A DNA stretch of 64,000 nt, from the NCBI GenBank assembly GCA_001800675.1, contig MGVW01000035.1, positions 6,731 through 70,730 of the forward strand. The letters are read 5' to 3'. Numbering within the stretch: the stretch's first letter is position 1; each line of letters begins with the position of its first letter. This document shows positions 26,337-57,528 of this stretch, piece by piece. The translations under genes and the position numbers were made by a program. A model generated the notes under the pieces. That model made no database searches. It saw only the letters and a list, made by a program, of their open reading frames with translations, and had not been told where the DNA came from. The stretch comes from Euryarchaeota archaeon RBG_13_57_23. GTDB taxonomy: Archaea > Thermoplasmatota > Thermoplasmata > UBA10834.

Positions 26337-27296
26337 ATGATCAAAGAGAAAGTCAAAACCGGAATCCCGGGACTTGACCAGATGCTGGACGGCGGGCTAC
26401 TCCAAGGACGCACATACGTCATCTCGGGGACTTCTGGATCTGGCAAAACTACACTGGCGATGCAGTTCCTTCTCGAGGGCGCCAGGAACGGGGAGAGAGT
26501 ACTCTACATGGCAATCGACGAGCCCCCGAACGAAGTCAAGAGCAACATGAAATCGTTCGATTGGGACATCTCCAGGGTACAGGTTTTCGATGCGACGCCC
26601 GATGTAATGAGCTATGATAAGACACCTGTCAGGGATGTGTCGACTGAGCGAAAGGTCGTCTACTTCCAGAGCATCGGCGAGAACATCAGGAAGACCTCCG
26701 AGAGAAGCCCTGTCGACATGACCGTCAACACAATCCAAGAGCTCCTGAAACAGGAGATGAAGGTCGCGAGGTATACGAGAATCGCAGTGGATTCCCTCAC
26801 ATCGATGAGGTACTTCTACATCAAGACGAGCGAGGAGAACGCGACCTTGATGAGCTTCCTCCGACTGCTCTCCGACATAGGAGTGACATGCCTGGTCACT
26901 ATACAGCTTCCAGAGATATCCAAACCGGACGTTGAAGCGCACGTCGCTAGGGGAGAGATCAGACTGCACAAGTGGTTCGATGGCCGCGGGTTAATGCGCG
27001 GGGTGACCATAGAGAAGTACAGGGGTTCGGCTCACGACAATGAGTTGAGACAGCTGCGGATAGGCCCGCAGGGGATAGTCGTCAAGGCACCGTCACTTGA
27101 GAAACCTGACGGGCAGCCAGCAATCGACGCGGGGCCCGCTGTCGCCGAATCTGCAGCGCCAAGCGAACCTCCTCCGCCTCCGGACGAAGAGCTTCTCCCT
27201 GCCCCGCCAGCTCCTCCGCAACCTTCAAGTCCTCCGGATTCAGGCGGCAGTCTTCAAGAGCCGCCCAAACCTAGCGATGGGGGTGAGGGCACGTGA
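26337..27296 (+). CDS. KaiC-like/RecA-superfamily ATPase (single domain) with a Pro-rich C-terminal tail
   Basis: GIPGLDQMLDGGLLQGRTYVISGTSGSGKTTLAMQFL (Walker A), RIAVDSLTS (Walker B) and RGVTIEKYRGSAHD. The last ~68 aa are Pro/Ala/Ser/Glu-rich. Confidence 0.85.
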   Translation: MIKEKVKTGIPGLDQMLDGGLLQGRTYVISGTSGSGKTTLAMQFLLEGARNGERVLYMAIDEPPNEVKSNMKSFDWDISRVQVFDATPDVMSYDKTPVRDVSTERKVVYFQSIGENIRKTSERSPVDMTVNTIQELLKQEMKVARYTRIAVDSLTSMRYFYIKTSEENATLMSFLRLLSDIGVTCLVTIQLPEISKPDVEAHVARGEIRLHKWFDGRGLMRGVTIEKYRGSAHDNELRQLRIGPQGIVVKAPSLEKPDGQPAIDAGPAVAESAAPSEPPPPPDEELLPAPPAPPQPSSPPDSGGSLQEPPKPSDGGEGT

Positions 27297-28123
27297 GCGA
27301 CGAGCACGGGCCCAGAGTGAGCACGGGCATCCCCGGATTGGACGAAATGCTTCAGGGAGGACTGATCCGGAGCAGGCCTTACGTGGTCTCGGGGACCACG
27401 GGCAGCGGCAAGACGACGCTTGCAATCCAGTATTTGCACAATGGCGTGAAGAACGGCGAACGGTCTCTTCTGGTGGCCATCGACGAACCTCCTGCGGAGA
27501 TCAGGGAGAACATGAGGGCGCTAGGGTGGGATATCGGGAAGATCAGGATCCTAGATGCGCATCCCGCGGCGAGACAGTACAGCAAACGAGTATCGCTTGT
27601 CGAAGTAGCGGCGCAACGGAGCGTGGCCACACTCAGAGAGGCGGGCCCGAGTGAGAAGACCGACCAGCTGAAGAAAGCTGCACCCGATATCTCAATCCAG
27701 TCTCTCCAGCTGATGCTTAAGCAAGAACTTCAGGAAACCAGGTACTCCCGAGTTGTGATTGATTCTCTCACATCCTTGAAGAAGCTGTCCGAGACAATGG
27801 AGGATACCAACTCGAGCGTCATGTCCCTCCTGAGGTTCCTTTCAGAATCGAATGTAACGACCTTGATAGTCACGGATCTGCCGGATCCGACAGTGCTGGA
27901 ACCCGAGATATTCATCTGTAGAGGCGAGATCAGGCTTCACAAGCGCATGGTCGGCAGTAGGCTCGACAGGTGGGTCACCGTTGAGAAGTTCAGGGGCTCA
28001 TCTCACGATATCATGCCAAGGAGCATGACCATAACGGAAAAGGGCATCACGGTCGATCACAAGAAGAAGATACCGAGAGCGTCCTTGAAGGTGCTCCAGG
28101 CCTTCACGCAGTTTGCCAGGTGA
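27293..28123 (+). CDS. KaiC-like/RecA-superfamily ATPase (single domain), paralog of the preceding gene
   Basis: GIPGLDEMLQGGLIRSRPYVVSGTTGSGKTTLAIQYL, RVVIDSLTS and RWVTVEKFRGSSHD. The GTG start overlaps the upstream stop (GTGA). Confidence 0.85.
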   Translation: MSDEHGPRVSTGIPGLDEMLQGGLIRSRPYVVSGTTGSGKTTLAIQYLHNGVKNGERSLLVAIDEPPAEIRENMRALGWDIGKIRILDAHPAARQYSKRVSLVEVAAQRSVATLREAGPSEKTDQLKKAAPDISIQSLQLMLKQELQETRYSRVVIDSLTSLKKLSETMEDTNSSVMSLLRFLSESNVTTLIVTDLPDPTVLEPEIFICRGEIRLHKRMVGSRLDRWVTVEKFRGSSHDIMPRSMTITEKGITVDHKKKIPRASLKVLQAFTQFAR

Positions 28124-30580: not shown

Positions 30581-31879
30581 TTGGCATCAAAGGGACTGAC
30601 ACGGACAGGAGAAGCGTACTGCCTCTCCTGCCACCAGATGGTCGACAGGGACGCCACCAAATGCCAGGGGTGCCTGTCAGAGCTCACATCGGAGGTAAAG
30701 GCCTTCCCTTGCCCGAAATGTAAAACCGTCATAGCCCTCGGTGTATCCGAGTGTCCGACTTGCGGTCTCCGGTTCAAGGTCAAGACTATCAGACCGCGAG
30801 AAACCGCAGAGGACGATCAGTTCCTGGTCAAATTGATCGAGTGGGGAAGAGACGGGGCTGACAAGGGCACGGAGGAGACGGTCAGCCCGGCAACACCATC
30901 CTCTACTGGGACATCGCAAGCTGAGGTGCCGGTGCAGACTCCGGCGCCCAAGGCGGAGCCATCCGATATCACAAGGCTCGCGCTGCTCAAGGACAGCATC
31001 AAGGACCTCATGGCCAACCGCTCCCAGATGCTGGAACGCATGGAGAGGCGCATCGAAGAAGAGAAAGCCAGGTTGGCCAAGATCGCCGTCATGGACGAGA
31101 GCACTACTGACGCTTCACATGTCGAGGCTGAGATAGTATCACTCGCCGACGAGATGGCCGACATAACGATGCTTCAGGCCCACATGGAGGCGCTCTCAGA
31201 TGAGGTCTCTTCGCTGTTAGATTCAGTGGACATAGGCGATGAGGCGAAGCAGCGGGGCCTCGCAGCGCGCGCCCTCAAGAAGAAGCTCGAGGCCAAGGAG
31301 AAAGAGGTCGAAGAGCTCAGGTCAAAGGAAGAGCAGCTGGTCAAGCGCGAGGAGATGGTTGACCGCAAGATCCACGCCTACGCTCAGAAGAAGAAGGAGC
31401 TGGACGATCGTGAGAGCGAGCTCCAGTCCAAGCTGTCCGAGCTCGAGAACGAGAGGGCCAGACTCCAAAACCTGCACTCGGAGGCGGTCGGCGCCAGCAC
31501 CGAGGTCGAACGGGAACGGGCCAATGAGGAGTGGAAGGAGGAACAGAAAGGATTGAACCAGCGCCTCCTTGGAATGAAGGTGTCAATCACCGCGCACAGG
31601 CTTGGAAAGGACGCGGCAGAGGCGGATATGAGGAGCTTGGAGACCGACCTGGACGCAACGATCGCCAAGCTGGAGGAACAGATCGGGGCTCTGATCAGCG
31701 AGAAGGTAGACCTTCAGGCAAAGATGCAGGAAGCCACGGTCGTCGATGAGGATCTCAAGAAGCTTCTCAAGGTCCTGGACCAGATGCTTGGCCAGTTGCC
31801 CGAGGAGGCCATCGAGAAGTTCTCGAAGTCTGACGATTTCACCGTCTACGAACGCATCCTTGACAAGTTCAAAATCTGA
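30581..31879 (+). CDS. Double zinc-ribbon plus coiled-coil protein
   Basis: 432 aa with a TTG start after AAAAGGAGAG. Two identically spaced ribbons are present: C14xxC17-x10-C28xxC31 and C44xxC47-x10-C58xxC61. An acidic/Pro linker follows, then ~270 aa of heptad-like coil, then a short tail (FTVYERILDKFKI). Confidence 0.7.
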   Translation: MASKGLTRTGEAYCLSCHQMVDRDATKCQGCLSELTSEVKAFPCPKCKTVIALGVSECPTCGLRFKVKTIRPRETAEDDQFLVKLIEWGRDGADKGTEETVSPATPSSTGTSQAEVPVQTPAPKAEPSDITRLALLKDSIKDLMANRSQMLERMERRIEEEKARLAKIAVMDESTTDASHVEAEIVSLADEMADITMLQAHMEALSDEVSSLLDSVDIGDEAKQRGLAARALKKKLEAKEKEVEELRSKEEQLVKREEMVDRKIHAYAQKKKELDDRESELQSKLSELENERARLQNLHSEAVGASTEVERERANEEWKEEQKGLNQRLLGMKVSITAHRLGKDAAEADMRSLETDLDATIAKLEEQIGALISEKVDLQAKMQEATVVDEDLKKLLKVLDQMLGQLPEEAIEKFSKSDDFTVYERILDKFKI

Positions 31880-31972: not shown

Positions 31973-34900
31973 ATGGGTCTCAGAGACAAAGCGAGAGAGA
32001 GCGTTTCCAAGCCAGTCAGCCCTGCTGCTGGCGAGACTGAGACAGATCCACCGACCAAGCCGCCATTGCAGGCGCCCCTCGACGCGGTGCCCGCCCCACA
32101 GCCGGGAGCCCTTGAGCCTTCGGTAACGTATCTGGTCGCGGGAGAGAAGCCGGATCTCGCCTATTCGCTCTTCATGACCGCCTCCGCGCAGGGCATGCGG
32201 GGCCTAGTCGTTTCTCGGACGTACCCGAAGAACCTGCGGAAGGCACTGGACCTGCGAGACGCCCCGGTCTACTGGCTCACCAATGCGGTGAGCGACGAGG
32301 CGATCGGCCCTAAGGACTTGGAGCGGCTGTCGCTGGTAATCAAGAGATTCCTCGATGAGGGCGGCGGCCAGCTGGTTCTGATCGACTCGCTCGAGTATGT
32401 CATCACGAACAACAAGTTCGTGAGCGTGCTGCGGCTCGTGGAGACGATCAGAGACCTGATCGCGATTCATAAGGCTGTTGGCATAATTGCTCTGAAGTCG
32501 TCGACGCTTGAGGCATCAAAGCTGGCATCCATCCAGAGAGAGCTCGAGGTGTACTCCGCTGACAAGAGTGTTTCAGCTCCGTCTGTTCCACGCCCTCCTG
32601 CGGAAAGCCCTGTCATTGCCGAGCTCAAGCAGGACGAGCTTATGCTTGAGGCCGAACGGCTGGAGCAGCAAAAGAAGACGGTTGCGGCCGCAGCCGACAA
32701 GGTTGCCAAGGACGCCCAGAGGCTCTCGCTCGAAAGACAGGAGCTTGAGAAGGAGCGCGCCGAGGTAAGGAACACCTTGGTCCGGGTTCGTCAGACAAGG
32801 AAGGAACTCGAAGATTTCCGCATAAAGCTCACGAAAGAGGAGGCCGAGTTGACCTCCAGGGTCAGGAGTAAGTTGACCAAGGAGATGCAGGGACTCGACT
32901 CGAAGAAGGCCACGCTCGAGATGATGGAGAAGGAGATCGAGTCGAGGTACCAACAGCTCGACAGGATCGTGAGCCTCAAGACAGAGCAAAGGCTCTACGA
33001 GGTTCAGGGGGAGAAGAAGCGGCTCGAGGCTGAGAGACAGAAGCTGTCCGAGATGATGTCTCAGCTAGAGGCGGACCATACGAATCTCGAAGAACGCATC
33101 AACGAGATTCAGCAGAAGGAAATCACGCTTCAGAAATCGTCCGAGGAGGCAAGGGAGCGCGAGAAAAGGCTCCAGGAGAGGGAGCACGCCATCGCCTTGG
33201 ACAAGGTGGAATTCGAGAAGCTAAGGGCCGCAGTGGACACTGAGAAGCAAGAACTGGAACAACGTCGAAAGGGTCTGGAGGACGAGTTCGCCCGGGCCCA
33301 GGCGGAAGCCGCGAGGCTCAATTCCGATGTGACGCAGAGGGAGGAAGCCGTCACCAAGATCACTCGGGAGCTGGACATGCTCAAGTCCAAGCTCGTCGCA
33401 CAGGAGCAGATGTTGAGCGACCGGGACAGGTCCGTAGGAACGCGCTTGCAGGACATCGAGAAGCGTGAGAAAGCCCTGGCGACGCTCGAGACGGAGGCGA
33501 AGCAGCTCTTCGAGAAAGCAACGATGCTCGACCAAGCCGCTAGAACGAAGGAAGAGCACCTGACGAAGGACCGGGAGAATCTTCAAACGGATATCGACAA
33601 CCTTCGGACGGAGCTCAGCAAGCGTTTGTCAGATGTGCAGAAGCGCGAGGAAAAGCTGCGCGCGGATGAGGACCGTCTCTCCAAGGAATCGGACTCAAGG
33701 AACAAGGCACTCAAGGACCTCGAAGACCAGATGAAGGAACAGAGCGCGAGCATGGCGAAGCTGAGGGAGGCGCTCGATCAACGTGAGGCCGCCATGAAGC
33801 AGGCCGAGAGCGACATCGCTGCGGTCCGGAAGGAGGCTGAGGAGTTCGCCGCATCCGTGAACGACGAGCGAACGGCACTCGACAAGGAGATCCAGGCAGC
33901 GAGGCAGAAGGTCATAGAGGAGAGGAATTCCTTCGAGCAGGACAAGCTCGCATTCGAGAACGAGCGCAACGATGCCGAGCGCCAAATCTCTGAGGCGCAG
34001 AAGGAGATAGATGACAAGCTAGGGAAGGTCGAGGAAGAGCGCAAGGAGATGGATGAGAAGGTGCTCGCCATCGAGGAGATGCGCACCATCCTCAACCAAC
34101 GCGCGAACGACGTCGCCTCGTCTGAGCTGAGGATGGCGGAGGAGCGGGTCACTATCGATTCCATGAGGCGCGAGATGACCCGAAAGGCCGAGGAGATAGA
34201 GTCTCTCGAGCGGGACTTCACTTTGAAGCAACAGAACCTGCAAGGGTCCGCAGAGCTTGTCCAGAAATCCAAGGCCCAGGTTGATGAGAAGGAGCGGGTG
34301 TTGAGGGAACAGCTCCTGGTGACCGAGAACGAGCGCACGGAGCTGGAGAGCAAGCGAGCATCATTGGACACCGAAGAGGCGGAGTTCCAGAAGTCGAAGG
34401 CAGAGGTAGAGGAACTCCAGGAGCAAATCACAACTCAAAGGATCGAGCTGGAAGAATGGAATAAACAGCTCGACGAGATATCCGATTCACTCGATTCAAG
34501 AAAGAATGAGATCGCGGCCAAAGAAGCGGCCGTAAGATCAGTCGTTGACGAGAACACAAGGGCTAGGGAACAGCTCGCTGCGGAGAAGCAGAGGTTGGAG
34601 GAGGATTTCAACTCCAAGTTCTCCGAGCTGGAGCAGAGGCGTAATGCGCTGGAGGCGGAGTCTGCGTCGCTCGCGACCGTCAGGAACAAGATGACGGTTA
34701 CCGAGCAGGAGGCCGGCAAGAGGGAAGAGAAACAGGTCGCGATGCAGAATGCGCTAGCGGAGCGCGAACAGAAGATTTCGGATACGGAGACGGCTGTCCA
34801 GACTGCGAAGAAGGCCATCGCGGAACAGGCTGAAATCATACGGGCGGACCGACAATCGGCGGAACAGCAGAAGGCCGAGATGGCCAAGGGCTGGGAAACG

Positions 34901-37261
34901 CTCCAGAAAGAGCGGGACACAGTCCAACAGGAGATCGACCGGAGCTGGGAAGACCTAGAGTCTGCGAAGAAGGCCCTGGAAGACAAGGCAAAGGACCTCG
35001 AGAAAACGGAAGAGGCTTTATCCGGGAGGAACAAGGAGCTCAATGCCGGACTCGCAGACATCTCCGAGAGGGAGAAGGACGTTGCGTCACAGAATCTGAA
35101 GTTTGAGGATGTCAAGCAGCAGCTTGCGTCTAGGGATTCAGACCTCCAGAGACGCGCGATCGAGCTGGAGGCGTTCAAGAACGACTTAACGCAGAGAGAA
35201 CAGCAGTCCCTGGCCAGCATAGAGGCCGCCCAGAAAGTCCTCGACAACGAGCGCATGACGATAGCTTCTGAGAGAACCGTTGTAGGAGACGAGAAGGCGC
35301 ACCTTGAAGCGCAGGCGGCCGGCTTCGTGACGCGCGAGAAGGAGCTGGAGCAGGCAATCACGATGCTCGAGCGGAAGACCCAGGAGATAGAGGAAGCTGA
35401 CCAGGACCTCAAACGGAAGGAATCGGAGATCCTGGGACAGGCAAAGCTCCTCGGTGAGAAGGACGCCTCCATCAAGCTTCTCGATCAGAAGAACCGCCAG
35501 GAGTTGGATGCTAGGAAGGCGGAGATTGACAGCAGAGCTGCCGAGACAGATAGGCTGCAGAATGATGTCAGGCAATCGGAGACCGCTCTGCGGCAGAAGG
35601 AGGCGTCTCTCGCAGCCAAGGAGAAGGCCTTTGCGGAAGTCGAAGAGAAAACTCGTTCGGAGTTGGAGGCGGCAATCACAGACGCCGACACGATGAAATC
35701 CCAGCTTGATGGAGTTGCGGAACACCTGAGGGGTCGGGAAGTGGAGATCGCGAATACGGAGAAGGTTCTCGTTGAGCGCGAGACCACTCTATCTGAGCTG
35801 GAGACTGAGACGAGAAAGCAGCTGGATTCGCGTCTTGCGGACATCGAGTCCCGAGAGAAGAATCTTCAGAGGGTCGCCAAGGAGCAGGCGGCCAAGGCAA
35901 CGCAGATCGCGGGCATTGAGAAGGCACTCGGGGAGAGAGAGTACGCGTTGTCGGAGGTGGAGAAGGGCTCCAAGCAGGAGATACAGGCACTAACGTTAAA
36001 GCTAGACGATGAGAGAACAAGGCTGGAAGCCGCTCTAGAGGACTTGAAGGGCCAGAAGGCCGAGGTCTTGCAGAAGGAGAAGGCGTTGGCTGCCCTGCAG
36101 ACTTCCCTCGAGACGGCAGAGGCGAAGTTCAATCAGGACAGAGATGCTCGGCTGGCTGAGCTTCAGGACGTCACCACAATGCTCGAGCAGGGTCAGGCGC
36201 AGCTCGAGCGCGACAAGGCTGCACTGGATGCCGCAACCGTTTCTTTTGAGAAGGAGAAGAGCGGCATTGCGCAACAGAAGGCGACCGTGGAGCACGAGCG
36301 CGCGAATTCAGAGGAGCTGCGAGCGTCGCTAGCGAACCTGCAGCGGGAACTGGGGGAAAGGGATTCGGCCATGAAGGAGAAGGAGGCAGATGTTCACTCC
36401 AGGCTTCAGGATGCAGATACCAGACTCGCTGGAATCGCCCGCCGGGAGTCAGAGATTGCTGAGGTCCAGAGCAGGTTCGAGAGCCAGGGCATGGCACTTG
36501 CCATGAGGGAGCAGGAAGCGAACAAGGCGCTCGACGAATACAAGGACATTCTTGACGAGATCGCTAAGCAGAAGGACGGGTTGGACGCGCGCGAAGTCGA
36601 GATCAAGACGAGGACCAACAAACTGGAGGAGAGCGCGATCGAGGTCGAGCTGCTTCACGAGGACATTGAGAAAGAGCGGCAATTGCTTGCGCAGAAAGAT
36701 GCTGGGCTGGAACAGCTTCGAGCGGAGCTTGAGAAGTGGCGTGTAGACCTGATGGAGAAGCGGGCTCAGCTGGAGGAAGACAGCAAGAAGCGGATATCTG
36801 AGATCGTCCGCGAGGCGGCCTCGAAGAAGGAGACGGCGACTTCTGCGACCCAAGAGCAGCTCTCGAGGAGAGAGATAGAGCTCAGATCGCGCGAGGAGAG
36901 GCTTCGGGCAAGGGAGATGGATCTGGAGACCAGTGAGCGGACCGTGGCAGTCGAATTCGAGAAGCTTGAGCGTGAGCGTGCCGAGGTCAAGGACCTCTGG
37001 GACAAAGTAGAGGCTTCTAAGAAGGGAATGACCATCGTGCTCGATGAGAGATCGATCAAGGTGCTCGAGGACAGGAAGACAGAGCTGGATAGCGCCTACC
37101 TGAAGCTCTCCGACAGGGAGGAAAACCTGCGCAAGGATGAGCAGCGGCTCGAAGACGAGCGCCTGAGATTGGATGCAATCAGAGAGGAGCTGGAAGACCT
37201 AGCTAGGGTCCTCAGGCCGAAGGAAGATGAAATCAAGAAGTCGGACGGCTCAGCTGCCTGA
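31973..37261 (+). CDS. Giant (1,762 aa) protein: Pro-rich leader, DUF835-like P-loop-less KaiC/RecA-like head, very long coiled coil
   Basis: A single uninterrupted ORF whose shadow ORFs on other frames are Ser/Arg-rich junk. The head is aa ~50-195. The remainder is E/K/R/L/A/Q-rich heptad-like sequence. Confidence 0.85.
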   Translation: MGLRDKARESVSKPVSPAAGETETDPPTKPPLQAPLDAVPAPQPGALEPSVTYLVAGEKPDLAYSLFMTASAQGMRGLVVSRTYPKNLRKALDLRDAPVYWLTNAVSDEAIGPKDLERLSLVIKRFLDEGGGQLVLIDSLEYVITNNKFVSVLRLVETIRDLIAIHKAVGIIALKSSTLEASKLASIQRELEVYSADKSVSAPSVPRPPAESPVIAELKQDELMLEAERLEQQKKTVAAAADKVAKDAQRLSLERQELEKERAEVRNTLVRVRQTRKELEDFRIKLTKEEAELTSRVRSKLTKEMQGLDSKKATLEMMEKEIESRYQQLDRIVSLKTEQRLYEVQGEKKRLEAERQKLSEMMSQLEADHTNLEERINEIQQKEITLQKSSEEAREREKRLQEREHAIALDKVEFEKLRAAVDTEKQELEQRRKGLEDEFARAQAEAARLNSDVTQREEAVTKITRELDMLKSKLVAQEQMLSDRDRSVGTRLQDIEKREKALATLETEAKQLFEKATMLDQAARTKEEHLTKDRENLQTDIDNLRTELSKRLSDVQKREEKLRADEDRLSKESDSRNKALKDLEDQMKEQSASMAKLREALDQREAAMKQAESDIAAVRKEAEEFAASVNDERTALDKEIQAARQKVIEERNSFEQDKLAFENERNDAERQISEAQKEIDDKLGKVEEERKEMDEKVLAIEEMRTILNQRANDVASSELRMAEERVTIDSMRREMTRKAEEIESLERDFTLKQQNLQGSAELVQKSKAQVDEKERVLREQLLVTENERTELESKRASLDTEEAEFQKSKAEVEELQEQITTQRIELEEWNKQLDEISDSLDSRKNEIAAKEAAVRSVVDENTRAREQLAAEKQRLEEDFNSKFSELEQRRNALEAESASLATVRNKMTVTEQEAGKREEKQVAMQNALAEREQKISDTETAVQTAKKAIAEQAEIIRADRQSAEQQKAEMAKGWETLQKERDTVQQEIDRSWEDLESAKKALEDKAKDLEKTEEALSGRNKELNAGLADISEREKDVASQNLKFEDVKQQLASRDSDLQRRAIELEAFKNDLTQREQQSLASIEAAQKVLDNERMTIASERTVVGDEKAHLEAQAAGFVTREKELEQAITMLERKTQEIEEADQDLKRKESEILGQAKLLGEKDASIKLLDQKNRQELDARKAEIDSRAAETDRLQNDVRQSETALRQKEASLAAKEKAFAEVEEKTRSELEAAITDADTMKSQLDGVAEHLRGREVEIANTEKVLVERETTLSELETETRKQLDSRLADIESREKNLQRVAKEQAAKATQIAGIEKALGEREYALSEVEKGSKQEIQALTLKLDDERTRLEAALEDLKGQKAEVLQKEKALAALQTSLETAEAKFNQDRDARLAELQDVTTMLEQGQAQLERDKAALDAATVSFEKEKSGIAQQKATVEHERANSEELRASLANLQRELGERDSAMKEKEADVHSRLQDADTRLAGIARRESEIAEVQSRFESQGMALAMREQEANKALDEYKDILDEIAKQKDGLDAREVEIKTRTNKLEESAIEVELLHEDIEKERQLLAQKDAGLEQLRAELEKWRVDLMEKRAQLEEDSKKRISEIVREAASKKETATSATQEQLSRREIELRSREERLRAREMDLETSERTVAVEFEKLERERAEVKDLWDKVEASKKGMTIVLDERSIKVLEDRKTELDSAYLKLSDREENLRKDEQRLEDERLRLDAIREELEDLARVLRPKEDEIKKSDGSAA
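32120..32557 (+). other. DUF835-like module (degenerate KaiC/RecA-like fold lacking Walker A) of the giant protein
   Basis: VTYLVAGEKPDLAYSLFMTASAQGMRGLVVSRTYP...GGGQLVLIDSLEYVITNNKFVSVLRLVETIRDL. It aligns block-for-block with the KaiC-like ATPases at 26337 and 27293, but GEKPD replaces GTSGSGKT. Confidence 0.6.
32615..37225 (+). other. About 1,530-residue coiled-coil tract with no Pro or Cys
   Basis: By eye there is no Pro or Cys between aa ~215 and ~1748. The tract has recurrent motifs such as RLQDIEKREKAL, RLSDVQKREEKL, RLADIESREKNL and GLADISEREKDV. Confidence 0.7.
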
Positions 37262-38578: not shown

Positions 38579-39850
38579 TCACTTCTTCTTGATTCTCTTG
38601 CGCCTGGCCTCTCTTAGGCTCCCCTCCGGTACAAGGCACATCTTCCTTCCGGAAAGGACGCCTGCGACACCTTCCTTGCTCTCCACCCTGCTGTAGTCAT
38701 CGCACATCTTGCAGTTCGGAGGGCAAACGCTCACCCTGTCCTTCGGTTGGGGATAGGAGAATGTTCCTCCCTCGTAATTCCTAAGCACGACTTTCTTGTC
38801 GGACATCGATATGAGATAGGTCGGCGCGACCGGTATCTTGCCGCCACCTCCAGGGGCGTCAACGATGAATGTCGGGACCGAGAATCCGGACGTGTGTCCT
38901 CTGAGTGCCTCCTGGATCTCGATGCCTTTTGCAACATCTGTCCTGAAGTGCTCCAACCCCTTGGAAATGTCGCACTGATAGTAGTAGTATGGCCTGCACC
39001 TGATCTTAACGAGTTCCTGGTTGAGCTTCTTCATGATGGTCGGGCAGTCGTTTAGCCCTTTCAGTAGCACAGTCTGATTCCCAACCGGTATTCCGTGGTC
39101 CGCTAGCATCTCCACAGCCCTCTTCGATTCCGGGGTGATTTCCTTCGGGTGGTTGAAGTGGGTGTTGAGCCAGAGCGGGTGGTATTTCGCCAGCATCTTG
39201 CAGAGCTCTGGAGTGATCCTCTGCGGGAGAGTGCACGGCGCCCTGCTGCCTATCCTGACTATCTCCACATGGTCGATCGCTCGGACCCGCCTGATGATAT
39301 CCTCAAGGAAGGCATCGGAGACCATGAGCGCGTCGCCTCCGGACAGTAGAACATCTCTGACCTCCTCGTGCTCCTTGATGTACTTAATCGATGCGTCGAT
39401 CGCGGACCTATCCCTATGCCTGTCCGTCTGACCGGCGAACCTCCTCCTCGTGCAGTGCCTGCAGTAGTTGCCGCACATGTCGGTGATGAGGAACAAGACC
39501 CTGTCCGGGTACCTGTGTGTCAGGCCGGGAGCAGGCGAGTCGACGTCCTCGAACAGCGGGTCCTCCATATCGGATTTGCTGAAATCCAATTCGCTAATGG
39601 TCGGAACCGCCTGCATTCTGATGGGGTCGTGCGGGTCGTCGGGATCCATCAACGCGGCGAAGTACGGGCTGATCGCCATCCTCAGCACTTTGAGCGATTC
39701 GTGGACTCCCTCCTCCTCCTCGCGTGTGAGATTGATCACCTGCTTGAGCTGGTCCACGGTGGTGATCCTGTTCCTGAGCTGCCAGTGCCAGTCGTCCCAG
39801 TCTTTCTTTGAGACGTCTTTCCATAGCGGTATCTGCTTGTATGATCGCAT
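38579..39850 (-). CDS. kamA: Lysine 2,3-aminomutase (radical SAM, KamA/AblA family)
   Basis: Radical-SAM cluster motif CGNYCRHCTRRR, the N-terminal WKDWxWQLRNRIT pattern and a C-terminal Zn/Cys region. The internal ATG is at 39850. Confidence 0.85.
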   Translation of the reverse strand: MRSYKQIPLWKDVSKKDWDDWHWQLRNRITTVDQLKQVINLTREEEEGVHESLKVLRMAISPYFAALMDPDDPHDPIRMQAVPTISELDFSKSDMEDPLFEDVDSPAPGLTHRYPDRVLFLITDMCGNYCRHCTRRRFAGQTDRHRDRSAIDASIKYIKEHEEVRDVLLSGGDALMVSDAFLEDIIRRVRAIDHVEIVRIGSRAPCTLPQRITPELCKMLAKYHPLWLNTHFNHPKEITPESKRAVEMLADHGIPVGNQTVLLKGLNDCPTIMKKLNQELVKIRCRPYYYYQCDISKGLEHFRTDVAKGIEIQEALRGHTSGFSVPTFIVDAPGGGGKIPVAPTYLISMSDKKVVLRNYEGGTFSYPQPKDRVSVCPPNCKMCDDYSRVESKEGVAGVLSGRKMCLVPEGSLREARRKRIKKK

Positions 39851-40164
39851 CAGGGCTGCCCCCAAGTAGGTGTGTGATTTCCGCATTGTTCCACAGTCTA
39901 TTTATCACCTGTCCACATCGTTCGTCGCAGCGTTACGAACTCGGATTCTGCGATTCGAAATCGGAAACAATTCGAAGCCCAGTCGCCTTTTCGTAGCCGA
40001 TTGTCTAATTCAGACGGAGCGCGCGTGTAAATCGCATATCGTTAAATACGCTGACCCTGATTCGAGAAAACACCATTCCAGACGGCTCGGAAACGACGTC
40101 GAAAACGCATGTTCCTCTAACATGGGTTCACCATCCTTGGCGGGGGTAAGCGGAAGGGATTGAC

Positions 40165-41331
40165 ATGAAGAAAGTAGCAATCGTCGGAGCAGGGCAGAGC
40201 AGATACGGAGACTTCCCCGACAAGGGCATCAAAGAATTGTTCTTCGAAGCGTACAAGGACATGAAAGCTAGCGTCGACAAGGGGCTGGACCCCAAGGCCA
40301 TCGAGTCCGCCTACATAGGCAACCTGGGCTCGGGCGGCTTCCAGCTAGGCAACATGTCCGCCCTTGTGACGGAGTACTGCGGGCTCACTCACATCAACAC
40401 CATGAGGATTGAGAATGCATGCGCTTCCGGAGGCTACGCCCTGGTAGCTGCCGTCATGGACGTGATGTCTGGGACCCACAAGGCCGTGCTCGCAGGCGGC
40501 GTCGAGAAGATGACCGATGTTTCTGGTGTCAAGCAGAAGTACTGGCTCGGAGTCTCCGGAGATACCGAGTACGAGAGGCTCGCAGGGACGACCTTCTCCG
40601 GCCTTTACGCACTGATCGCGCAGAGGCACATGCACGATTTCGGCACGAAGAGAGAACATCTCTCAATGGTGGCCGTCAAGAACCACAAGAACGGCGCGCA
40701 GAACCCCAAGGCCCAGTTCCAAAGGGAGATCACCCTCGAACAGGCCATCAAGGGACCGATTGTGGCGAGCCCTCTGAACCTGTTCGATTGCTGCTCGACC
40801 ACAGACGGGGCGTCCGCGGTGCTCGTCTGTGACGCGGAGATCGCAAAGCAGTACACGGACACACCAGTCTACGTCGCGGGGTTCGGAACCGCTAGCGACT
40901 TCTTGGCAATCCACGACCGCCCGGACACGACGACCCTCGAAGGAACGAGGAGAGCGGGCGAGATGGCCTACAAGATGTCCGGGCTGACTCCTAAGGACAT
41001 ACAACTGGCCGAAGTCCACGACTGCTTCACGATCGCGGAGCTACTTGCGTACGAAGACCTGGGATTCTGCGAGAAGGGTAAGGCAGGTCCGTTCATCGAG
41101 CAGGGCCATACGCAGATCGGAGGGGACAAGCCGGTCAACGCCAGCGGAGGTCTGAAGTCCAAGGGCCACCCGATCGGGTCCACAGGCACGGGCATGGCGT
41201 ACGAGATGTTCAACCAGCTCAGAGGGAGCGTCCAGAAGCCAACCAGACAGATCAAGGGCGCGGAGATCGGGCTGATTCACAATGTTGGTGGGTCGGGCGG
41301 GACCGTCGCGGTCACCATTATGAGGAGGTAA
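40165..41331 (+). CDS. Acetyl-CoA C-acetyltransferase (archaeal thiolase)
   Basis: 388 aa with IENACASGGYAL (nucleophile Cys), EVHDCFTIAE and NASGGL. Confidence 0.9.
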   Translation: MKKVAIVGAGQSRYGDFPDKGIKELFFEAYKDMKASVDKGLDPKAIESAYIGNLGSGGFQLGNMSALVTEYCGLTHINTMRIENACASGGYALVAAVMDVMSGTHKAVLAGGVEKMTDVSGVKQKYWLGVSGDTEYERLAGTTFSGLYALIAQRHMHDFGTKREHLSMVAVKNHKNGAQNPKAQFQREITLEQAIKGPIVASPLNLFDCCSTTDGASAVLVCDAEIAKQYTDTPVYVAGFGTASDFLAIHDRPDTTTLEGTRRAGEMAYKMSGLTPKDIQLAEVHDCFTIAELLAYEDLGFCEKGKAGPFIEQGHTQIGGDKPVNASGGLKSKGHPIGSTGTGMAYEMFNQLRGSVQKPTRQIKGAEIGLIHNVGGSGGTVAVTIMRR

Positions 41332-42353
41332 TGGCAATGGCAATCGGTATCTCTGGATATAGCGCGTACATACCAAGGCTGAGGATCAAGAAGGAAGATT
41401 ATGCGAAGGCCTGGGGGTCGTTCTCGGCGGCGGGCGTGGCGGAGAAATCCGTCATGGGCTTCGATGAGGATGTACTGACCGCAGCTGCCAAGGTGTCCAA
41501 GAGGGCGTTGGAATCCGTGCCGATGGCTCCCGACAAGGTGACCAGGTTCGCATTTGCGTCGACGTCTCCACCATACTTCGAGAAGCTGCTCTCGGGGACT
41601 GTGCTTTACTCCGTGGGAATGCCGAATTCAGCCTTTTCGAGTGACCACACGACCTCGACCCGCGCGGGCACCGAGGCAATGATCGCGGGGTTTGAGCACA
41701 TCTCGGCCAACCAGACAGGAATGGCTGTCGTAGTGGCTGCGGATGCACCCAGCGCGAGCATGTGGGATTCCGTGGAGCACGCGCTTGGGGCTGGAGCAGC
41801 GGCATTCGTCTTGTCCGCAGATAATCTCGTCGCGGAACTCGAAGGACATGCCTCATACGCGAGCGAGTACTTCGGGGAGCGTTTCAGGCCGAGGGGAAAT
41901 CCCTACCTACACGACCTGAATGTGAAGAAGTATGCCGAGGGTTCACTCATAACGAATACCACGCGTGCGGCCAACGCGCTTCTTAAGAGCCTGAACAGGA
42001 AGCCGGAGGAGTACCAGCACGTCGTAATCCAACAGCCGGACGCGAGGGTCCCAACGACTGTCGCATCGAGGTTGGGTTTCACGGACGCACAGCTCGCATC
42101 ATCTCTTGTGTCCAAGTCGTTGGGAGACCTTGGGGCGGCGTCGGTCCCCGTGGCGCTTGCGGCAGCTCTGGATGTGGCGAAGGTGGGAGACCAGATAATG
42201 GTCATTTCCTACGGATCAGGGGCAGGTAGCGACGCGTTGAGCTTCAAGGTCGTCAGCGACCGAAAGGCTCCTGTCAAGGTCCAGGCGGAGATGGACCGCA
42301 AGGAGTACATTGACTATGTCAAGTACCTCAAGATCAAAGGAGCCATTGTGTGA
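41331..42353 (+). CDS. HMG-CoA synthase (archaeal type)
   Basis: 340 aa with N-terminus IGISGYSAYIPRLRIKKEDYA. It overlaps the thiolase stop by 1 nt (TAATG). Confidence 0.85.
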   Translation: MAMAIGISGYSAYIPRLRIKKEDYAKAWGSFSAAGVAEKSVMGFDEDVLTAAAKVSKRALESVPMAPDKVTRFAFASTSPPYFEKLLSGTVLYSVGMPNSAFSSDHTTSTRAGTEAMIAGFEHISANQTGMAVVVAADAPSASMWDSVEHALGAGAAAFVLSADNLVAELEGHASYASEYFGERFRPRGNPYLHDLNVKKYAEGSLITNTTRAANALLKSLNRKPEEYQHVVIQQPDARVPTTVASRLGFTDAQLASSLVSKSLGDLGAASVPVALAAALDVAKVGDQIMVISYGSGAGSDALSFKVVSDRKAPVKVQAEMDRKEYIDYVKYLKIKGAIV

Positions 42354-42362
42354 GGTGATGTT

Positions 42363-42776
42363 GTGGCACATGTTTCAGTTCCGATGTACTGGAGGACCAT
42401 ACCTCAGAGATACAAGATGATTGGACAGAAGTGCAAGAAGTGCGGCGCGATCAACTTCCCGCCTAAGGGCGTGTGCAAGTACTGCCAGACCTCTTCCGAG
42501 TTCGAGGAGATCCAGCTCAGTGGCAGAGGGAAGGTCCACACGTTCGTCCTGATCAGCGCCGGTGGAGCCCCTCCGGAGTTCGCCGAACAGGAGAAGGCAG
42601 GGGGCCAGTACCCGGTCGCAATTGTGCAGCTGGAAGAAGGGCCCAAGGTGATCGGCCAGATAGCGGATGTCGATCCCAAGGAAGTGAAGATCGACATGCC
42701 GGTCAAAGCAGAGCTCAGGAAGATCTACACTGAGGAAGAGGTCATCAGATACGGATTCAAGTTCGTTCCAGGATGA
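42363..42776 (+). CDS. DUF35 Zn-ribbon/OB-fold protein (scaffold of the thiolase/HMGCS complex)
   Basis: 137 aa with the CKKCGAINFPPKGVCKYC ribbon followed by an OB-fold-like region. It sits in the canonical third position of the archaeal trio. Confidence 0.85.
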   Translation: MAHVSVPMYWRTIPQRYKMIGQKCKKCGAINFPPKGVCKYCQTSSEFEEIQLSGRGKVHTFVLISAGGAPPEFAEQEKAGGQYPVAIVQLEEGPKVIGQIADVDPKEVKIDMPVKAELRKIYTEEEVIRYGFKFVPG

Positions 42777-42792
42777 AAGGGAGTGAGATAAG

Positions 42793-43710
42793 ATGAGCAC
42801 AGGCAAACTGACCACGATGAGGGAGGCCGTCTCCAGATACGTGAAGGACGGAGACGAGATTTACTTGGCGGGATTCACGCACATGATCCCGTTCGCAGCA
42901 GGGCATGAGATCATCAGGCAGAAGCGGAAGGATCTGACGCTCTGCCGTGCAACTCCGGACATCATCTACGACCAGATGATCGCCGCAGGATGCTGCAAGA
43001 AGCTCATGTTCAGCTACGCTGGTAACCCCGGTGTGGGGTCGCTCAGATGCTTCAGGAGAGCCCTGGAGAAGGGCATACCGAACAAGATAGAGATAGACGA
43101 GTACTCGCACTTCGGACTCTCGGGGAGGTTGTTCGCGGGGGCGACGAACATGCACTTCCTGCCCATGAGGACCAACAGGGGCTCCGACCTTCCGCAACAG
43201 AACCCGAACATCAAGACGGTAAGGGACCCGTACACAGGGGACGAAGTGTCAGTGGTCCCACCGCTGAAGCCAGATGTGGCCGTGGTGCATGTCCAGCGCT
43301 GCGATTCCAACGGGAACTCGCACATATGGGGCATCATAGGCGAGCAGAAGGACGCGGCCTTCGCGGCAAAGAAGGTCATCATAAGCGCGGAGGAGATCGT
43401 GGACGAGAGCGTCATCAGATCGGATCCCAACCGCACTCTCATCCCTGATTTCATAGTACACTCAGTAGTGCACGAGCCATGGGCCTGCCATCCGTCATAT
43501 GTCCAGGGATACTACGACAGGGACAACGAGTTCTACATGCAGTGGGACGAGATAACCAAGGAGCACGACACCACGATGAAGTACATGGACGAGTGGGTTT
43601 TCGGGGTCGAGAACCGCCAACAGTACATGAAGAAGATTCAGCAGGACAAGATCAACAAGCTCACGCCGAAGGCTTGCATGAGCGCCCCCGTCAGCTACGG
43701 GAGCGTGTGA
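42793..43710 (+). CDS. Family I CoA-transferase, alpha subunit (glutaconate/3-oxoacid CoA-transferase-like)
   Basis: 305 aa beginning MREAVSRYVKDGDEIYLAGF. It is paired with a beta subunit 7 nt downstream. Confidence 0.8.
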   Translation: MSTGKLTTMREAVSRYVKDGDEIYLAGFTHMIPFAAGHEIIRQKRKDLTLCRATPDIIYDQMIAAGCCKKLMFSYAGNPGVGSLRCFRRALEKGIPNKIEIDEYSHFGLSGRLFAGATNMHFLPMRTNRGSDLPQQNPNIKTVRDPYTGDEVSVVPPLKPDVAVVHVQRCDSNGNSHIWGIIGEQKDAAFAAKKVIISAEEIVDESVIRSDPNRTLIPDFIVHSVVHEPWACHPSYVQGYYDRDNEFYMQWDEITKEHDTTMKYMDEWVFGVENRQQYMKKIQQDKINKLTPKACMSAPVSYGSV

Positions 43711-43717
43711 GGAGGTC

Positions 43718-44485
43718 ATGAACATGTCAGAATGCACACCGAGCGAGCTGATGGTCGCAGTGGCTGCAAGAGAGCTCAAGGACCATGATACGGTACTGGT
43801 CGGGGTTGGCATACCGAACCTCGCGGCCAACCTGGCCAAGAAGCTGCAGGCGCCGAACCTGGTGATGGTATACGAGTCAGGAGCGGTCGGGTCAAATCCG
43901 AGCAGAATGCCGCTCTCGATCGGAGACCCATGCCTGGTGACAGGTGCGAAGAGCGTGTGTTCGATGTACGAGCAGTTCGCGTACTACCTTCAGGGTGGGC
44001 GCATCGATGTCGGGTTCCTGGGAGGCGCTCAGATCGACAAGTACGGGAACATCAACTCGACCGTCATCGGCAGCTATAAGGCCCCGAAGGTTCGGCTGCC
44101 GGGGAGCGGCGGGGCATGCGATATCGCCTCGAACGTCAAGAAGATCATTGTAATCACGCCGCACGAGAAGCGGAGGTTCGTGGAGAGGGTCGACTTCCTC
44201 ACGAGCCCAGGATTCGTTGACGGCAAAGAGAAATGGAAGCAGCTGAAGCTCATTGGCGGGGGACCATATGCGGTCATCACAAACCTCTGCACGATGAAGT
44301 TCGACGATGTCACCGGTGAGATGATGGTCACCTCCCTTCATCCAGGTGTCACGATCGAGAAGGTCTGGGAGAACACCCCGTGGAAGGTCAAGGTGTCGGC
44401 GAATTTGGAGCAGACTCCTCCGCCGACGGAGAAGGAGATATCCGCCTTGAGGGCCCTGGACCCGAACAAGACCTACCTAGGGTGA
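43718..44485 (+). CDS. Family I CoA-transferase, beta subunit
   Basis: 255 aa with the catalytic-glutamate context VMVYESGAVG and LPGSGGACDIA. Confidence 0.8.
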   Translation: MNMSECTPSELMVAVAARELKDHDTVLVGVGIPNLAANLAKKLQAPNLVMVYESGAVGSNPSRMPLSIGDPCLVTGAKSVCSMYEQFAYYLQGGRIDVGFLGGAQIDKYGNINSTVIGSYKAPKVRLPGSGGACDIASNVKKIIVITPHEKRRFVERVDFLTSPGFVDGKEKWKQLKLIGGGPYAVITNLCTMKFDDVTGEMMVTSLHPGVTIEKVWENTPWKVKVSANLEQTPPPTEKEISALRALDPNKTYLG

Positions 44486-44491
44486 GGAACC

Positions 44492-45841
44492 ATGAGCCCG
44501 AGCTTTGATCCGATGGCGGAGTACAACGCGAAGACGAAGAGGAGCGCTCAGTGGTTCGAGACGGCTAGCAAGCATCTTCCGGGAGGCGTGACCGGGAACG
44601 TCAAGTTCTATCCTCCGTATCCCGTGTACCTGAAGAAGGCGAAAGGTTCGCATGTCTGGGACCTCGACGGGAACGAGTACATCGACTATATGCTGTGCTT
44701 CGGCCCGTTGATTCTTGGACACGCACACCCAAGGGTCGTGGAGGCCGTTAGGAAGCAGGTCGAGCAGGACGGCACACACATATTCGGCGCTCCACACGAA
44801 CTCGAAGCAAAGATGGCGGAGCGACTGAAGGGCATCTTTCCGTTCGCTGACAGCGTTAGGTTCACGAACTCCGGGCTTGAGGCAACGATGCACTCGTTGC
44901 GGGTCGCAAAGGGCTTCAGGAAGAAGACGAAGGTGGCCAAGTTCGAGGGAGCCTATCACGGATGCTACGACGAGGTTCTTTGCAGCTTGGCACCAGCAGA
45001 GAGCGCCGCTGGCCCGAGAGCTTCGCCCAAGACGGTTCCCGGGTCCTATGGCACCTCCGAGACTACAGTAGAGAACGTTCTCGTGCTTCCCTACAACGAT
45101 ATCGAGAATTCGGTGAGGATCATGAGGGCGCACAAAGACGAACTCGCAGCCGTCATCATGGAGCCGGTTCAGCGGGGGTTCGTGGTTCCAGACATCGAGT
45201 TTCTCAGAGTGGTCAGGGAGACCACGAGGGAGCTCGGCATCCCGTTGATTTTCGATGAGGTGATGTCGGGGTTCAGGATGGAGGTCTTCGGCGGCGCGTG
45301 CACACAGTACAGGGTGGAACCTGACATGATCTGCCTGGGCAAGATCATCGGGGGCGGGTTCCCGAGCGGAGCATTCCTCGGGAAACGTGATATCATGGAC
45401 ATGGTCAACCCTGTCACCCGCGCCAAAGACCAGCGCGTGTTCCACGGCGGCACTTTCAACGGGCATCCGACGGTGTTGTCCGCAGGCTGGGCCACGCTCG
45501 ATGTACTTCAGGAACCCAAGACCTACCCGTACCTGAACAGGATCTCCGACAAGCTGAGGGATGGCTTTAACGATCTGTTCAGCCGGATGGGTTTCGAGGC
45601 GAGGGCCATCGGTCCCGGTTCGACCTTCAACCTCGTGTTCTCGAAGGGCAAGATAGGCGACTACAGGGATGCCGCGAGAGCAGATGCGAAGCTAAGGCAG
45701 AAGTTGGACTACGGAATGCTCGCCAGAGGGTTACACTTCCATCCAGACAAGCCGTTCTATACTTGCACGGAGCACTCCGATAATGATGTCGCCCGCACGC
45801 TTAGCGTAGCCGATGAAGTCCTGAAGAAGATGAAGCAATAG
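44492..45841 (+). CDS. Class III aminotransferase, glutamate-1-semialdehyde-2,1-aminomutase-like
   Basis: 449 aa with HLPGGVTGNV, KFEGAYHG, FDEVMSGFR and the PLP-Lys context CLGKIIGGGFP. It is divergent from canonical HemL at the N-terminus. Confidence 0.8.
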   Translation: MSPSFDPMAEYNAKTKRSAQWFETASKHLPGGVTGNVKFYPPYPVYLKKAKGSHVWDLDGNEYIDYMLCFGPLILGHAHPRVVEAVRKQVEQDGTHIFGAPHELEAKMAERLKGIFPFADSVRFTNSGLEATMHSLRVAKGFRKKTKVAKFEGAYHGCYDEVLCSLAPAESAAGPRASPKTVPGSYGTSETTVENVLVLPYNDIENSVRIMRAHKDELAAVIMEPVQRGFVVPDIEFLRVVRETTRELGIPLIFDEVMSGFRMEVFGGACTQYRVEPDMICLGKIIGGGFPSGAFLGKRDIMDMVNPVTRAKDQRVFHGGTFNGHPTVLSAGWATLDVLQEPKTYPYLNRISDKLRDGFNDLFSRMGFEARAIGPGSTFNLVFSKGKIGDYRDAARADAKLRQKLDYGMLARGLHFHPDKPFYTCTEHSDNDVARTLSVADEVLKKMKQ

Positions 45842-57493: not shown

Positions 57494-57528
57494 CTCGCCA
57501 TCAATATGGCCTGTGCGAAGGATTGGTC

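Follow-up and report, generated by a model that had tools for sequence, protein, structure and literature searches.

Why would an aminoacyl-tRNA synthetase and a giant coiled-coil protein of one archaeon carry the same small domain, and how is that domain related to the KaiC-like ATPases encoded nearby? The question arises from a stretch of 64,000 nucleotides of Euryarchaeota archaeon RBG_13_57_23 (assembly GCA_001800675.1, contig MGVW01000035.1, positions 6,731 to 70,730 of the forward strand), which is referred to here in its entirety as the window and is numbered from its first letter. An earlier note on this DNA, based on manual alignment, described one module at the head of the giant protein and another at the tail of isoleucyl-tRNA synthetase (IleRS) as pseudo-ATPase paralogs of two intact KaiC-like proteins of the window and suggested that the modules might co-assemble with, or be regulated by, active KaiC-like rings. 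Here, we find that both modules are assigned by profile matches to the Pfam family DUF835 (PF05763), which sequence and modeling evidence indicates is a shortened offshoot of the KaiC/RecA fold, predicted to be inactive as an ATPase. We favor, with moderate confidence, the explanation that DUF835 would act as a docking or output module that plugs IleRS and the giant rod into a partner in trans.

Two fusion proteins that share DUF835

The IleRS gene occupies positions 57523 to 61788 of the + strand. Pfam and motif scans of its 1,421 amino acids returned, in order, a class I core, Anticodon_1, DUF5915, HhH_5, a 75-amino-acid linker rich in Pro and Ala (positions 60868 to 61092), a second HhH domain, and DUF835. 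The matches to tRNA-synt_1 (PF00133, E = 1.4e-122) and Anticodon_1 (PF08264, E = 7e-36) and the signature motifs HVGT (residues 56 to 59) and PMSKS (residues 601 to 605) indicate that this open reading frame (ORF) encodes a complete class I IleRS (class Ia), with the core, the HIGH- and KMSKS-type motifs, and the anticodon-binding domain. The C-terminal DUF835 domain (61312 to 61785, + strand; residues 1264 to 1421) matches PF05763 at E = 6.8e-36, scoring 123.5 bits over residues 1282 to 1414 (cut-off, 33.1 bits). It includes SFSYLVEEDKPETSY at residues 1274 to 1288 (61342 to 61386), the motifs SYLVEEDKPE, VTRNYP, and VVWLS, and VVLLDGLEY at residues 1358 to 1366.

The giant protein (31973 to 37261, + strand; 1,762 amino acids) begins with MGLRDKARES, followed by a Pro/Ala-rich linker, DUF835, and a long heptad coiled coil; no Pfam family besides DUF835 passes its threshold in this ORF. 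The hidden Markov model (HMM) envelope of the domain covers residues 40 to 197 (32090 to 32563, + strand; PF05763, E = 6.7e-28), with 97.6 bits over residues 61 to 191 against the same gathering cut-off, and the span 32120 to 32557 to which the earlier note drew attention (residues 50 to 195) corresponds to this DUF835 domain. At its start stands SVTYLVAGEKPDLAY (residues 50 to 64; 32120 to 32164). The first strand, TYLVAG, leads into a short EKPD loop at the P-loop position, SRTYP takes the place of the IDEPP of KaiC, VYWLT is present, and the Walker-B-like segment LVLIDSLEY (residues 134 to 142) is kept. The giant head and the IleRS tail are 47% identical (71 of 152 positions, E = 3e-54), close to the roughly 45% counted by hand in the earlier note. 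When an HMM built from the modules was run against the six-frame translation of the window, no DUF835 copy was found beyond these two. Segments of low complexity rich in Pro and Ala occur in three of the four proteins considered here, namely at 27100 to 27296 (the tail of the first KaiC-like protein), 32000 to 32110 (the linker of the giant protein), and 60868 to 61092 (the IleRS linker).

The uninterrupted heptad coiled coil that follows DUF835 in the giant protein spans ~1,300 to 1,500 amino acids. A hydrophobic period of 3.5 was detected in 18 of 21 scanning windows between residues 216 and ~1500, compared with 7% of scanning windows in shuffled sequences, and there is a single Pro in 1,547 residues. 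Given this periodicity and the near-absence of Pro, the protein is predicted to form a continuous coiled-coil rod about 200 to 220 nm in length. The rod segment has no match among PDB sequences.

Neither fusion is confined to this genome. With one genome considered per species of the Genome Taxonomy Database (GTDB), the IleRS-DUF835 fusion was found at ~45 loci, ranging from Thermoplasmata metagenome-assembled genomes (MAGs) to Methanomassiliicoccus and Methanomassiliicoccales, and IleRS sequence is present in 30 of 146 newly retrieved representatives of DUF835 family clusters (50% identity). The full IleRS-HhH-DUF835 architecture was seen in five scanned proteins of up to 2,329 amino acids; some versions are 1,650 to 2,330 amino acids long, a size that implies sizable additional insertions separating the core of IleRS from its tail. 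The neighbors of IleRS are ordinary genes (FEN1, AcnX/NUDIX). The IleRS-HhH-DUF835 fusion is thus shared by members of both Thermoplasmata and Methanomassiliicoccales rather than being peculiar to this locus. The rod protein, likewise, is conserved in a Thermoplasmata clade, with orthologues of 1,600 to 1,780 amino acids bearing an N-terminal DUF835 in ~27 Thermoplasmata genomes. A near-invariant MGLRDKARES (31973 to 32002 in the window) opens the giant protein and its orthologues, ahead of a variable linker rich in Pro, Glu, and Gln and then DUF835, and may be a short linear interaction motif. Public gene calls of the rod orthologues are nearly all partial or frameshifted fragments of 130 to 280 amino acids, often at contig ends, and one fragment carries the wrong label "FtsZ-interacting protein ZipA"; given such fragmentary calls, the rod family is under-represented and under-annotated in the protein collection.

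Relation to KaiC-like ATPases and loss of the nucleotide site

Both KaiC-like ATPases upstream of the giant gene are intact, as the earlier note had it. The first (26337 to 27296, + strand; 319 amino acids) matches PF06745 at E = 5.9e-44 and the second (27293 to 28123, + strand; 276 amino acids) at E = 3.6e-48, and the start of the second overlaps the stop of the first by 4 nucleotides. The GT[ST]GSGKT and hhhhDS (h, hydrophobic) motifs are present in both, as Walker A GTSGSGKT (26427 to 26450, + strand) and Walker B RIAVDS in the first protein and as Walker A GTTGSGKT (27392 to 27415, + strand) and Walker B RVVIDS in the second. The first ends in a Pro-rich C-terminal tail of ~65 amino acids. 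The second has 853 homologues in the search made; of the 120 listed, all that carry a name come from Thermoplasmata or Thermoplasmatota.

All of the peptide strings from which the hand alignment to these ATPases had been built are present in the sequence where they were said to be. Direct comparison of the DUF835 modules with the KaiC-like proteins of the window by pairwise BLASTP gave nonsignificant E values of 0.8 to 1.3. In two separate hhalign runs, a DUF835 profile and a profile of the window KaiC-like proteins and their orthologues aligned in the register that had been proposed (P = 0.018 to 0.034), with the P-loop shortened by 3 to 4 residues, IDEPP over SRTYP, RILD over YWL[ST], and VVIDSLTS over LLDGLEYL; the LRFLS helix was aligned in the first run only. 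When the columns of the KaiC alignment were shuffled as a control, the score of the true hhalign alignment was reached in 11 of 200 trials; the KaiC profile used is shallow (effective number of sequences, ~2.4), as it contains close orthologues only. The register of the hand alignment was thus recovered, but the alignment is marginal when taken by itself. The direct comparison comes near to non-significance; homology is well supported by the profile and fold comparisons that follow.

When 1.84 billion cluster representatives were searched with a profile to collect the DUF835 family, 3,211 representatives were returned at E ≤ 1e-3, of which 1,977 were at E ≤ 1e-10. With a diverse alignment of 30 DUF835 sequences as the profile, the best match among 177,635 PDB sequences was FlaH of Sulfolobus acidocaldarius (4yds_A, E = 2.4e-4), and next came a second FlaH (4wia, E = 0.2). 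The first alignment spans helix 3, the Walker B strand, and the next helix and strand, and it places the Asp of DUF835 LLDG on the Asp of FlaH IVIDS. NCBIfam models of FlaH and KaiC also match the DUF835 region weakly (E = 0.014 and 0.03, respectively). An AlphaFold2 model of the giant head, computed with the same 30-sequence alignment, reached a predicted local distance difference test score (pLDDT) of 94.6 and a predicted TM-score (pTM) of 0.89. Compared with the PDB using Foldseek, this model gave 110 matches at E ≤ 1e-3; among the 50 that were listed, almost all are ATPases of the RecA/KaiC superfamily. The best of these, all with probability 1.00, are FlaH (E = 2e-6; query-normalized TM-score [TMq], 0.68), RecA, DMC1, KaiC (TMq, 0.72), and PH0284 (TMq, 0.70). 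The FlaH profile match and the predicted fold support homology of DUF835 to the KaiC/RecA fold (of the additional strand, catalytic E [ASCE] P-loop type), and a RecA/KaiC-like fold of the modules is what the earlier note had anticipated.

The same data bear on the possibility that the resemblance to KaiC reflects chance or convergence and that DUF835 has an unrelated alpha/beta fold. The nonsignificant BLASTP scores and a direct hhalign alignment no better than ~5% of column shuffles are what such an origin would produce, but it would leave unexplained why FlaH is the best of all PDB sequences searched, why the listed structural matches are dominated by one superfamily, and why hhalign independently recovered the colinearity motif by motif. 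These observations effectively refute a chance or convergent resemblance, and we assign it a negligible probability.

What the two modules have lost is the nucleotide site. Across 161 DUF835 family domains (133 after reduction at 70% identity), on which all conservation figures given here are based in the numbering of the giant protein, not a single GxxxxGK[ST] P-loop was found, and both modules lack it, with AGEKPD and EEDKPE where the Walker A P-loop would be. A 4-residue E/D-x-P loop stands where KaiC has its 8-residue loop, and the strand 1-loop-helix 1 element is kept; in the AlphaFold2 model, four residues separate strand 12-17 from helix 22-33. The catalytic D-E that follows strand 2 in KaiC (IDEPP) aligns to T-R in the modules (SRTYP and TRNYP), and the Arg at this position, R82, is 86% conserved in DUF835. 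The hhhhD strand of Walker B is retained (LVLID and VVLLD), with its Asp aligned to those of FlaH IVIDS and KaiC VVIDS, and the corresponding position, D138, is Asp in 69% and Glu in 14% of the family. Retention of the strand order and of the acidic Walker B residue alongside loss of the P-loop, as read from the hand alignment, thus holds in the hhalign and FlaH alignments. Furthermore, DUF835 is ~150 amino acids long, compared with ~230 for a full KaiC domain; it ends at FlaH residue 177 of 228, at the RGEIRLHK strand of KaiC, and lacks the C-terminal third of the KaiC domain (~50 to 70 residues). None of the 30 DUF835 members tested matches PF06745 at E ≤ 1.

Other positions are strongly constrained, including Y53 (90%), P85 (98%), W101 (100%), S/T103 (98%), P113 (93%), G139 (87%), E141 (82%), Y142 (85%), N147 (86%), and D161 (86%). 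Such constraint on new positions argues for retained function rather than decay, and the pattern appears to be the usual one for a pseudo-enzyme with a newly gained binding function, not that of a decaying gene. Taken together, profiles and model indicate that DUF835 derives from the KaiC/RecA fold by truncation and loss of catalytic motifs, and canonical ATP binding or hydrolysis would not be possible. The description of the modules as pseudo-ATPase relatives of KaiC therefore fits the fold, the FlaH match, and the missing P-loops, but to call them paralogs of the KaiC-like proteins of the window overstates the relationship, which is that of remote superfamily members.

Placement of the domain and its possible roles

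Among the 165 top family members, DUF835 is exclusively C-terminal in 132 and exclusively N-terminal in 9, and ~23 have 2 to 4 tandem copies. Sampled architectures include REC-PAS-PAS-GAF-DUF835, HisKA_7TM-PAS-GAF-DUF835, HisKA_7TM with four DUF835 stretches, TPR-DUF835, AAA_16-DUF835-TPR, and Zn-ribbon-DUF835. Judged from these architectures, DUF835 appears to follow sensor domains in the position usual for a transmitter or output domain, which fits the published proposal of signaling hubs discussed below. We favor a docking or output role: DUF835 would be a module for protein-protein docking or output that works independently of nucleotide within an archaeal, KaiC-centered signaling network. 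Docking would occur via the remodeled face of the former active site (putatively R82, W101, S/T103, D138, E141, N147, and D161), and the domain would serve as a shared plug, joined by flexible Pro/Ala-rich linkers to IleRS and to the ~220-nm rod. Most likely, a common partner would recruit or regulate IleRS and the rod in trans; KaiC-like hexamers are a plausible candidate for that partner. We consider this explanation as a whole to be moderately probable.

The tandem arrangements raise another possibility, namely that DUF835 self-associates as a dimer or ring and so bundles rod ends and clusters IleRS with no KaiC partner involved. RecA and KaiC folds oligomerize readily, and 2 to 4 copies in one chain suggest domain-domain packing as in double-domain KaiC. 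Nevertheless, the canonical interface elements are lost from DUF835, and a single C-terminal copy after sensor domains, the usual arrangement, fits output or docking equally well; we thus think it improbable that self-association is the function of the domain. As an observation in its own right, five of the proteins examined have 2 to 4 DUF835 domains per chain, an organization that recalls double-domain KaiC and, by analogy, hints that DUF835 domains may pack against each other.

Alternatively, as has been proposed for MEDS, the former nucleotide pocket could bind a small molecule, or a nucleotide in a noncanonical way, and in this case control IleRS and the rod allosterically. Conserved polar or aromatic residues do occupy positions equivalent to motifs (R82, W101, D138, E141, N147, and D161), and MEDS, a related inactivated domain of KaiC type, has been described as sensory (PMC5847659). 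However, a position downstream of PAS, GAF, 7TM, and REC sensors, where DUF835 is usually found, is one of output and not of input, and no member of the 30-sequence alignment matches the MEDS model at E ≤ 1. A role as ligand sensor therefore seems very unlikely.

The ring co-assembly suggested in the earlier note, by which DUF835 would take a place within, or on top of, the hexamers formed by the neighboring KaiC-like proteins and tether IleRS and the rod as cargo, is best judged by gene neighborhoods and by the domain itself. In its favor are a fold common to the ring-forming KaiC, FlaH, and RecA, the published proposal of signaling hubs composed of KaiC-like proteins and inactivated homologues (Makarova et al. 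2017, as cited in PMC5847659), and a rod gene that follows the KaiC pair downstream, 3 to 9 kb away and with the same orientation, in ~20 of the 22 related loci with enough flanking sequence. This proximity carries little information, though, because synteny extends over the whole block bounded by HMG-CoA reductase and SAM synthetase, so that block synteny rather than operon linkage accounts for it. Four unrelated genes part the KaiC pair from the rod gene, among them an AAT-family acyltransferase, a nitroreductase, and a Zn-ribbon protein (an AsnC regulator also occurs here in relatives), and the flanks of one more distant rod homologue (52% identity) contain no KaiC-like gene out to 10 kb.

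The remaining DUF835 genes offer no link of this kind. Using a KaiC HMM, which was built from one subfamily and may miss very divergent KaiC-like proteins, we found no KaiC-like gene within 10 kb in any of the ~45 IleRS-DUF835 loci and a single one in 29 metagenomic loci of the sensor type (304 kb in total), where it lies 7.6 kb away on the opposite strand. The domain itself presents a further difficulty. In RecA-like rings, the nucleotide site and the C-terminal segment build the subunit interface, and DUF835 has neither, which makes it doubtful that this domain, ~50 residues short at its C terminus, could form a canonical ring interface. Insertion into KaiC rings is thus unlikely, and neither the co-assembly nor the regulation by active rings put forward for this locus is borne out by the neighborhoods. 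An interaction of DUF835 in trans with KaiC-like hubs is possible.

Several points weigh against the docking explanation that we favor. The partner is hypothetical, and the gene neighborhoods contain no KaiC link for either the IleRS fusions or the sensor-type genes. The direct profile alignment of DUF835 to the KaiC-like proteins of the window is marginal, and placement in the KaiC branch as opposed to RecA-like folds generally depends mainly on FlaH being the best match in both sequence and structure. Finally, the conserved Walker B Asp and polar residues leave room for noncanonical binding of a nucleotide or small ligand.

The identification of DUF835 as a dead KaiC by itself changes little, and interest lies in the cargo. 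A putative housekeeping aminoacyl-tRNA synthetase permanently carries a signaling-type output domain across a whole archaeal class, and a conserved giant coiled-coil rod bears the same plug. It is quite unlikely, in our estimate, that IleRS and the rod of Thermoplasmata and Methanomassiliicoccales are wired into archaeal KaiC-type signaling via a shared iKaiC plug. If they were, one ATPase hub or partner could recruit, sequester, or tune isoleucine charging, and so translation capacity, along with a filament resembling a cytoskeleton, which would be a mode of aminoacyl-tRNA synthetase regulation not described before. More generally, a common partner, if it exists, would offer a testable entry point into KaiC-based archaeal signaling and a possible link between signaling and translation.

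Genomic setting and comparison with known systems

The window is archaeal, with a GC content of ~57%. Among public sequences, its nearest relative is contig MGWC01000065.1 from Euryarchaeota archaeon RBG_19FT_COMBO_56_21 (96% amino acid identity over the head of the giant protein), and the remaining relatives of the window proteins are all from Thermoplasmata or Thermoplasmatota MAGs. Directly upstream of the giant gene, at a distance of 93 nucleotides, lies a gene for a protein of 432 amino acids with two CxxC-type zinc ribbons and a coiled coil (30581 to 31879, + strand). This protein has no Pfam match; a gene of 404 to 423 amino acids holds the same position in three related loci, and the protein may be a partner of the rod. 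The purine excess on the coding strand reaches its maximum for the window at 32001 to 36000 (AT skew, +0.32; GC skew, +0.155) because the coiled-coil gene there is rich in Glu, Lys, Arg, and Ala codons; it is not a replication signal. Farther downstream, positions 38579 to 45841 encode a lysine 2,3-aminomutase-like radical SAM enzyme, a thiolase, a KAS-III-like protein, CoA-transferase subunits A and B, and a class III aminotransferase; this cluster looks like a catabolic module for lysine or beta-lysine, or an osmolyte module.

Of the systems with which DUF835 can be compared, the KaiC-like archaellum motor protein FlaH/ArlH (PDB 4yds and 4wia) is likewise a single RecA-like domain, and its Walker B strand and next helix are colinear with those of DUF835. 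FlaH was solved with ATP and Mg (4yds) and binds nucleotide, whereas DUF835 lacks the P-loop and is ~50 to 70 residues shorter at the C terminus. DUF835 scores 14.9 bits against the NCBIfam FlaH model NF004723, far under the cut-off of 194, and does not match the ArlH model (NF052589); it is therefore not an ArlH orthologue.

The archaeal single-domain KaiC-like proteins of PF06745, such as PH0284 (PDB 2dr3) and the pair in the window, have the same fold as DUF835 (TMq, 0.70 to 2dr3) and the same order of elements, namely strand 1, helix 1, strand 2, helix 2, the ILD/WLS strand, helix 3, the Walker B strand, a helix, and strand 4. DUF835 differs from them in the absence of Walker A, the replacement of the catalytic Glu by Arg, and the lack of a PF06745 match, of the ~40-amino-acid insert before helix 3, and of the C-terminal RGEIRLHK...EKxRGSxH. 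MEDS (PF14417), like DUF835, is a KaiC-derived inactive domain of archaeal and bacterial signaling proteins, but it forms a separate Pfam family, matched weakly by the intact KaiC-like proteins of the window (E of ~0.02). Two more Pfam families are weakly matched by the 30 DUF835 members: DUF7504 (PF24336) by 11 (best E, 3e-5) and DUF7090 (PF23365) by 4 (best E, 6.6e-5), the latter also by the first KaiC-like protein (E = 0.009). From these matches, both are probably further KaiC-derived, possibly inactivated, families.

The closest precedent is the published one. Mentions of DUF835 or PF05763 in the searchable literature reduce to Galperin, Makarova, Wolf, and Koonin 2018 (PMC5847659), who list "DUF835 (iKaiC), PF05763" as an inactivated KaiC-like ATPase domain and as an output domain of response regulators; the label iKaiC is also given there to MEDS. 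That paper credits the label to Makarova, Galperin, and Koonin 2017 (mBio 8:e01959-17), which it further cites for the proposal that KaiC-like ATPases and their inactivated homologues act as archaeal signaling hubs. The recognition of DUF835 as a dead KaiC-like domain is, then, a rediscovery of a published assignment. In the searchable literature, which did not include the 2017 paper, neither the IleRS fusion nor the rod fusion with DUF835 was found described, and these two fusions may be the only new element. Both modules share with the published iKaiC the Pfam family, the KaiC-superfamily core, and the loss of ATPase motifs. The partners are what differ: in place of signaling domains, the domain is joined here to IleRS, via HhH domains and a Pro/Ala-rich linker, and to a 1,762-amino-acid rod that carries it at the N terminus, the minority orientation for the family.

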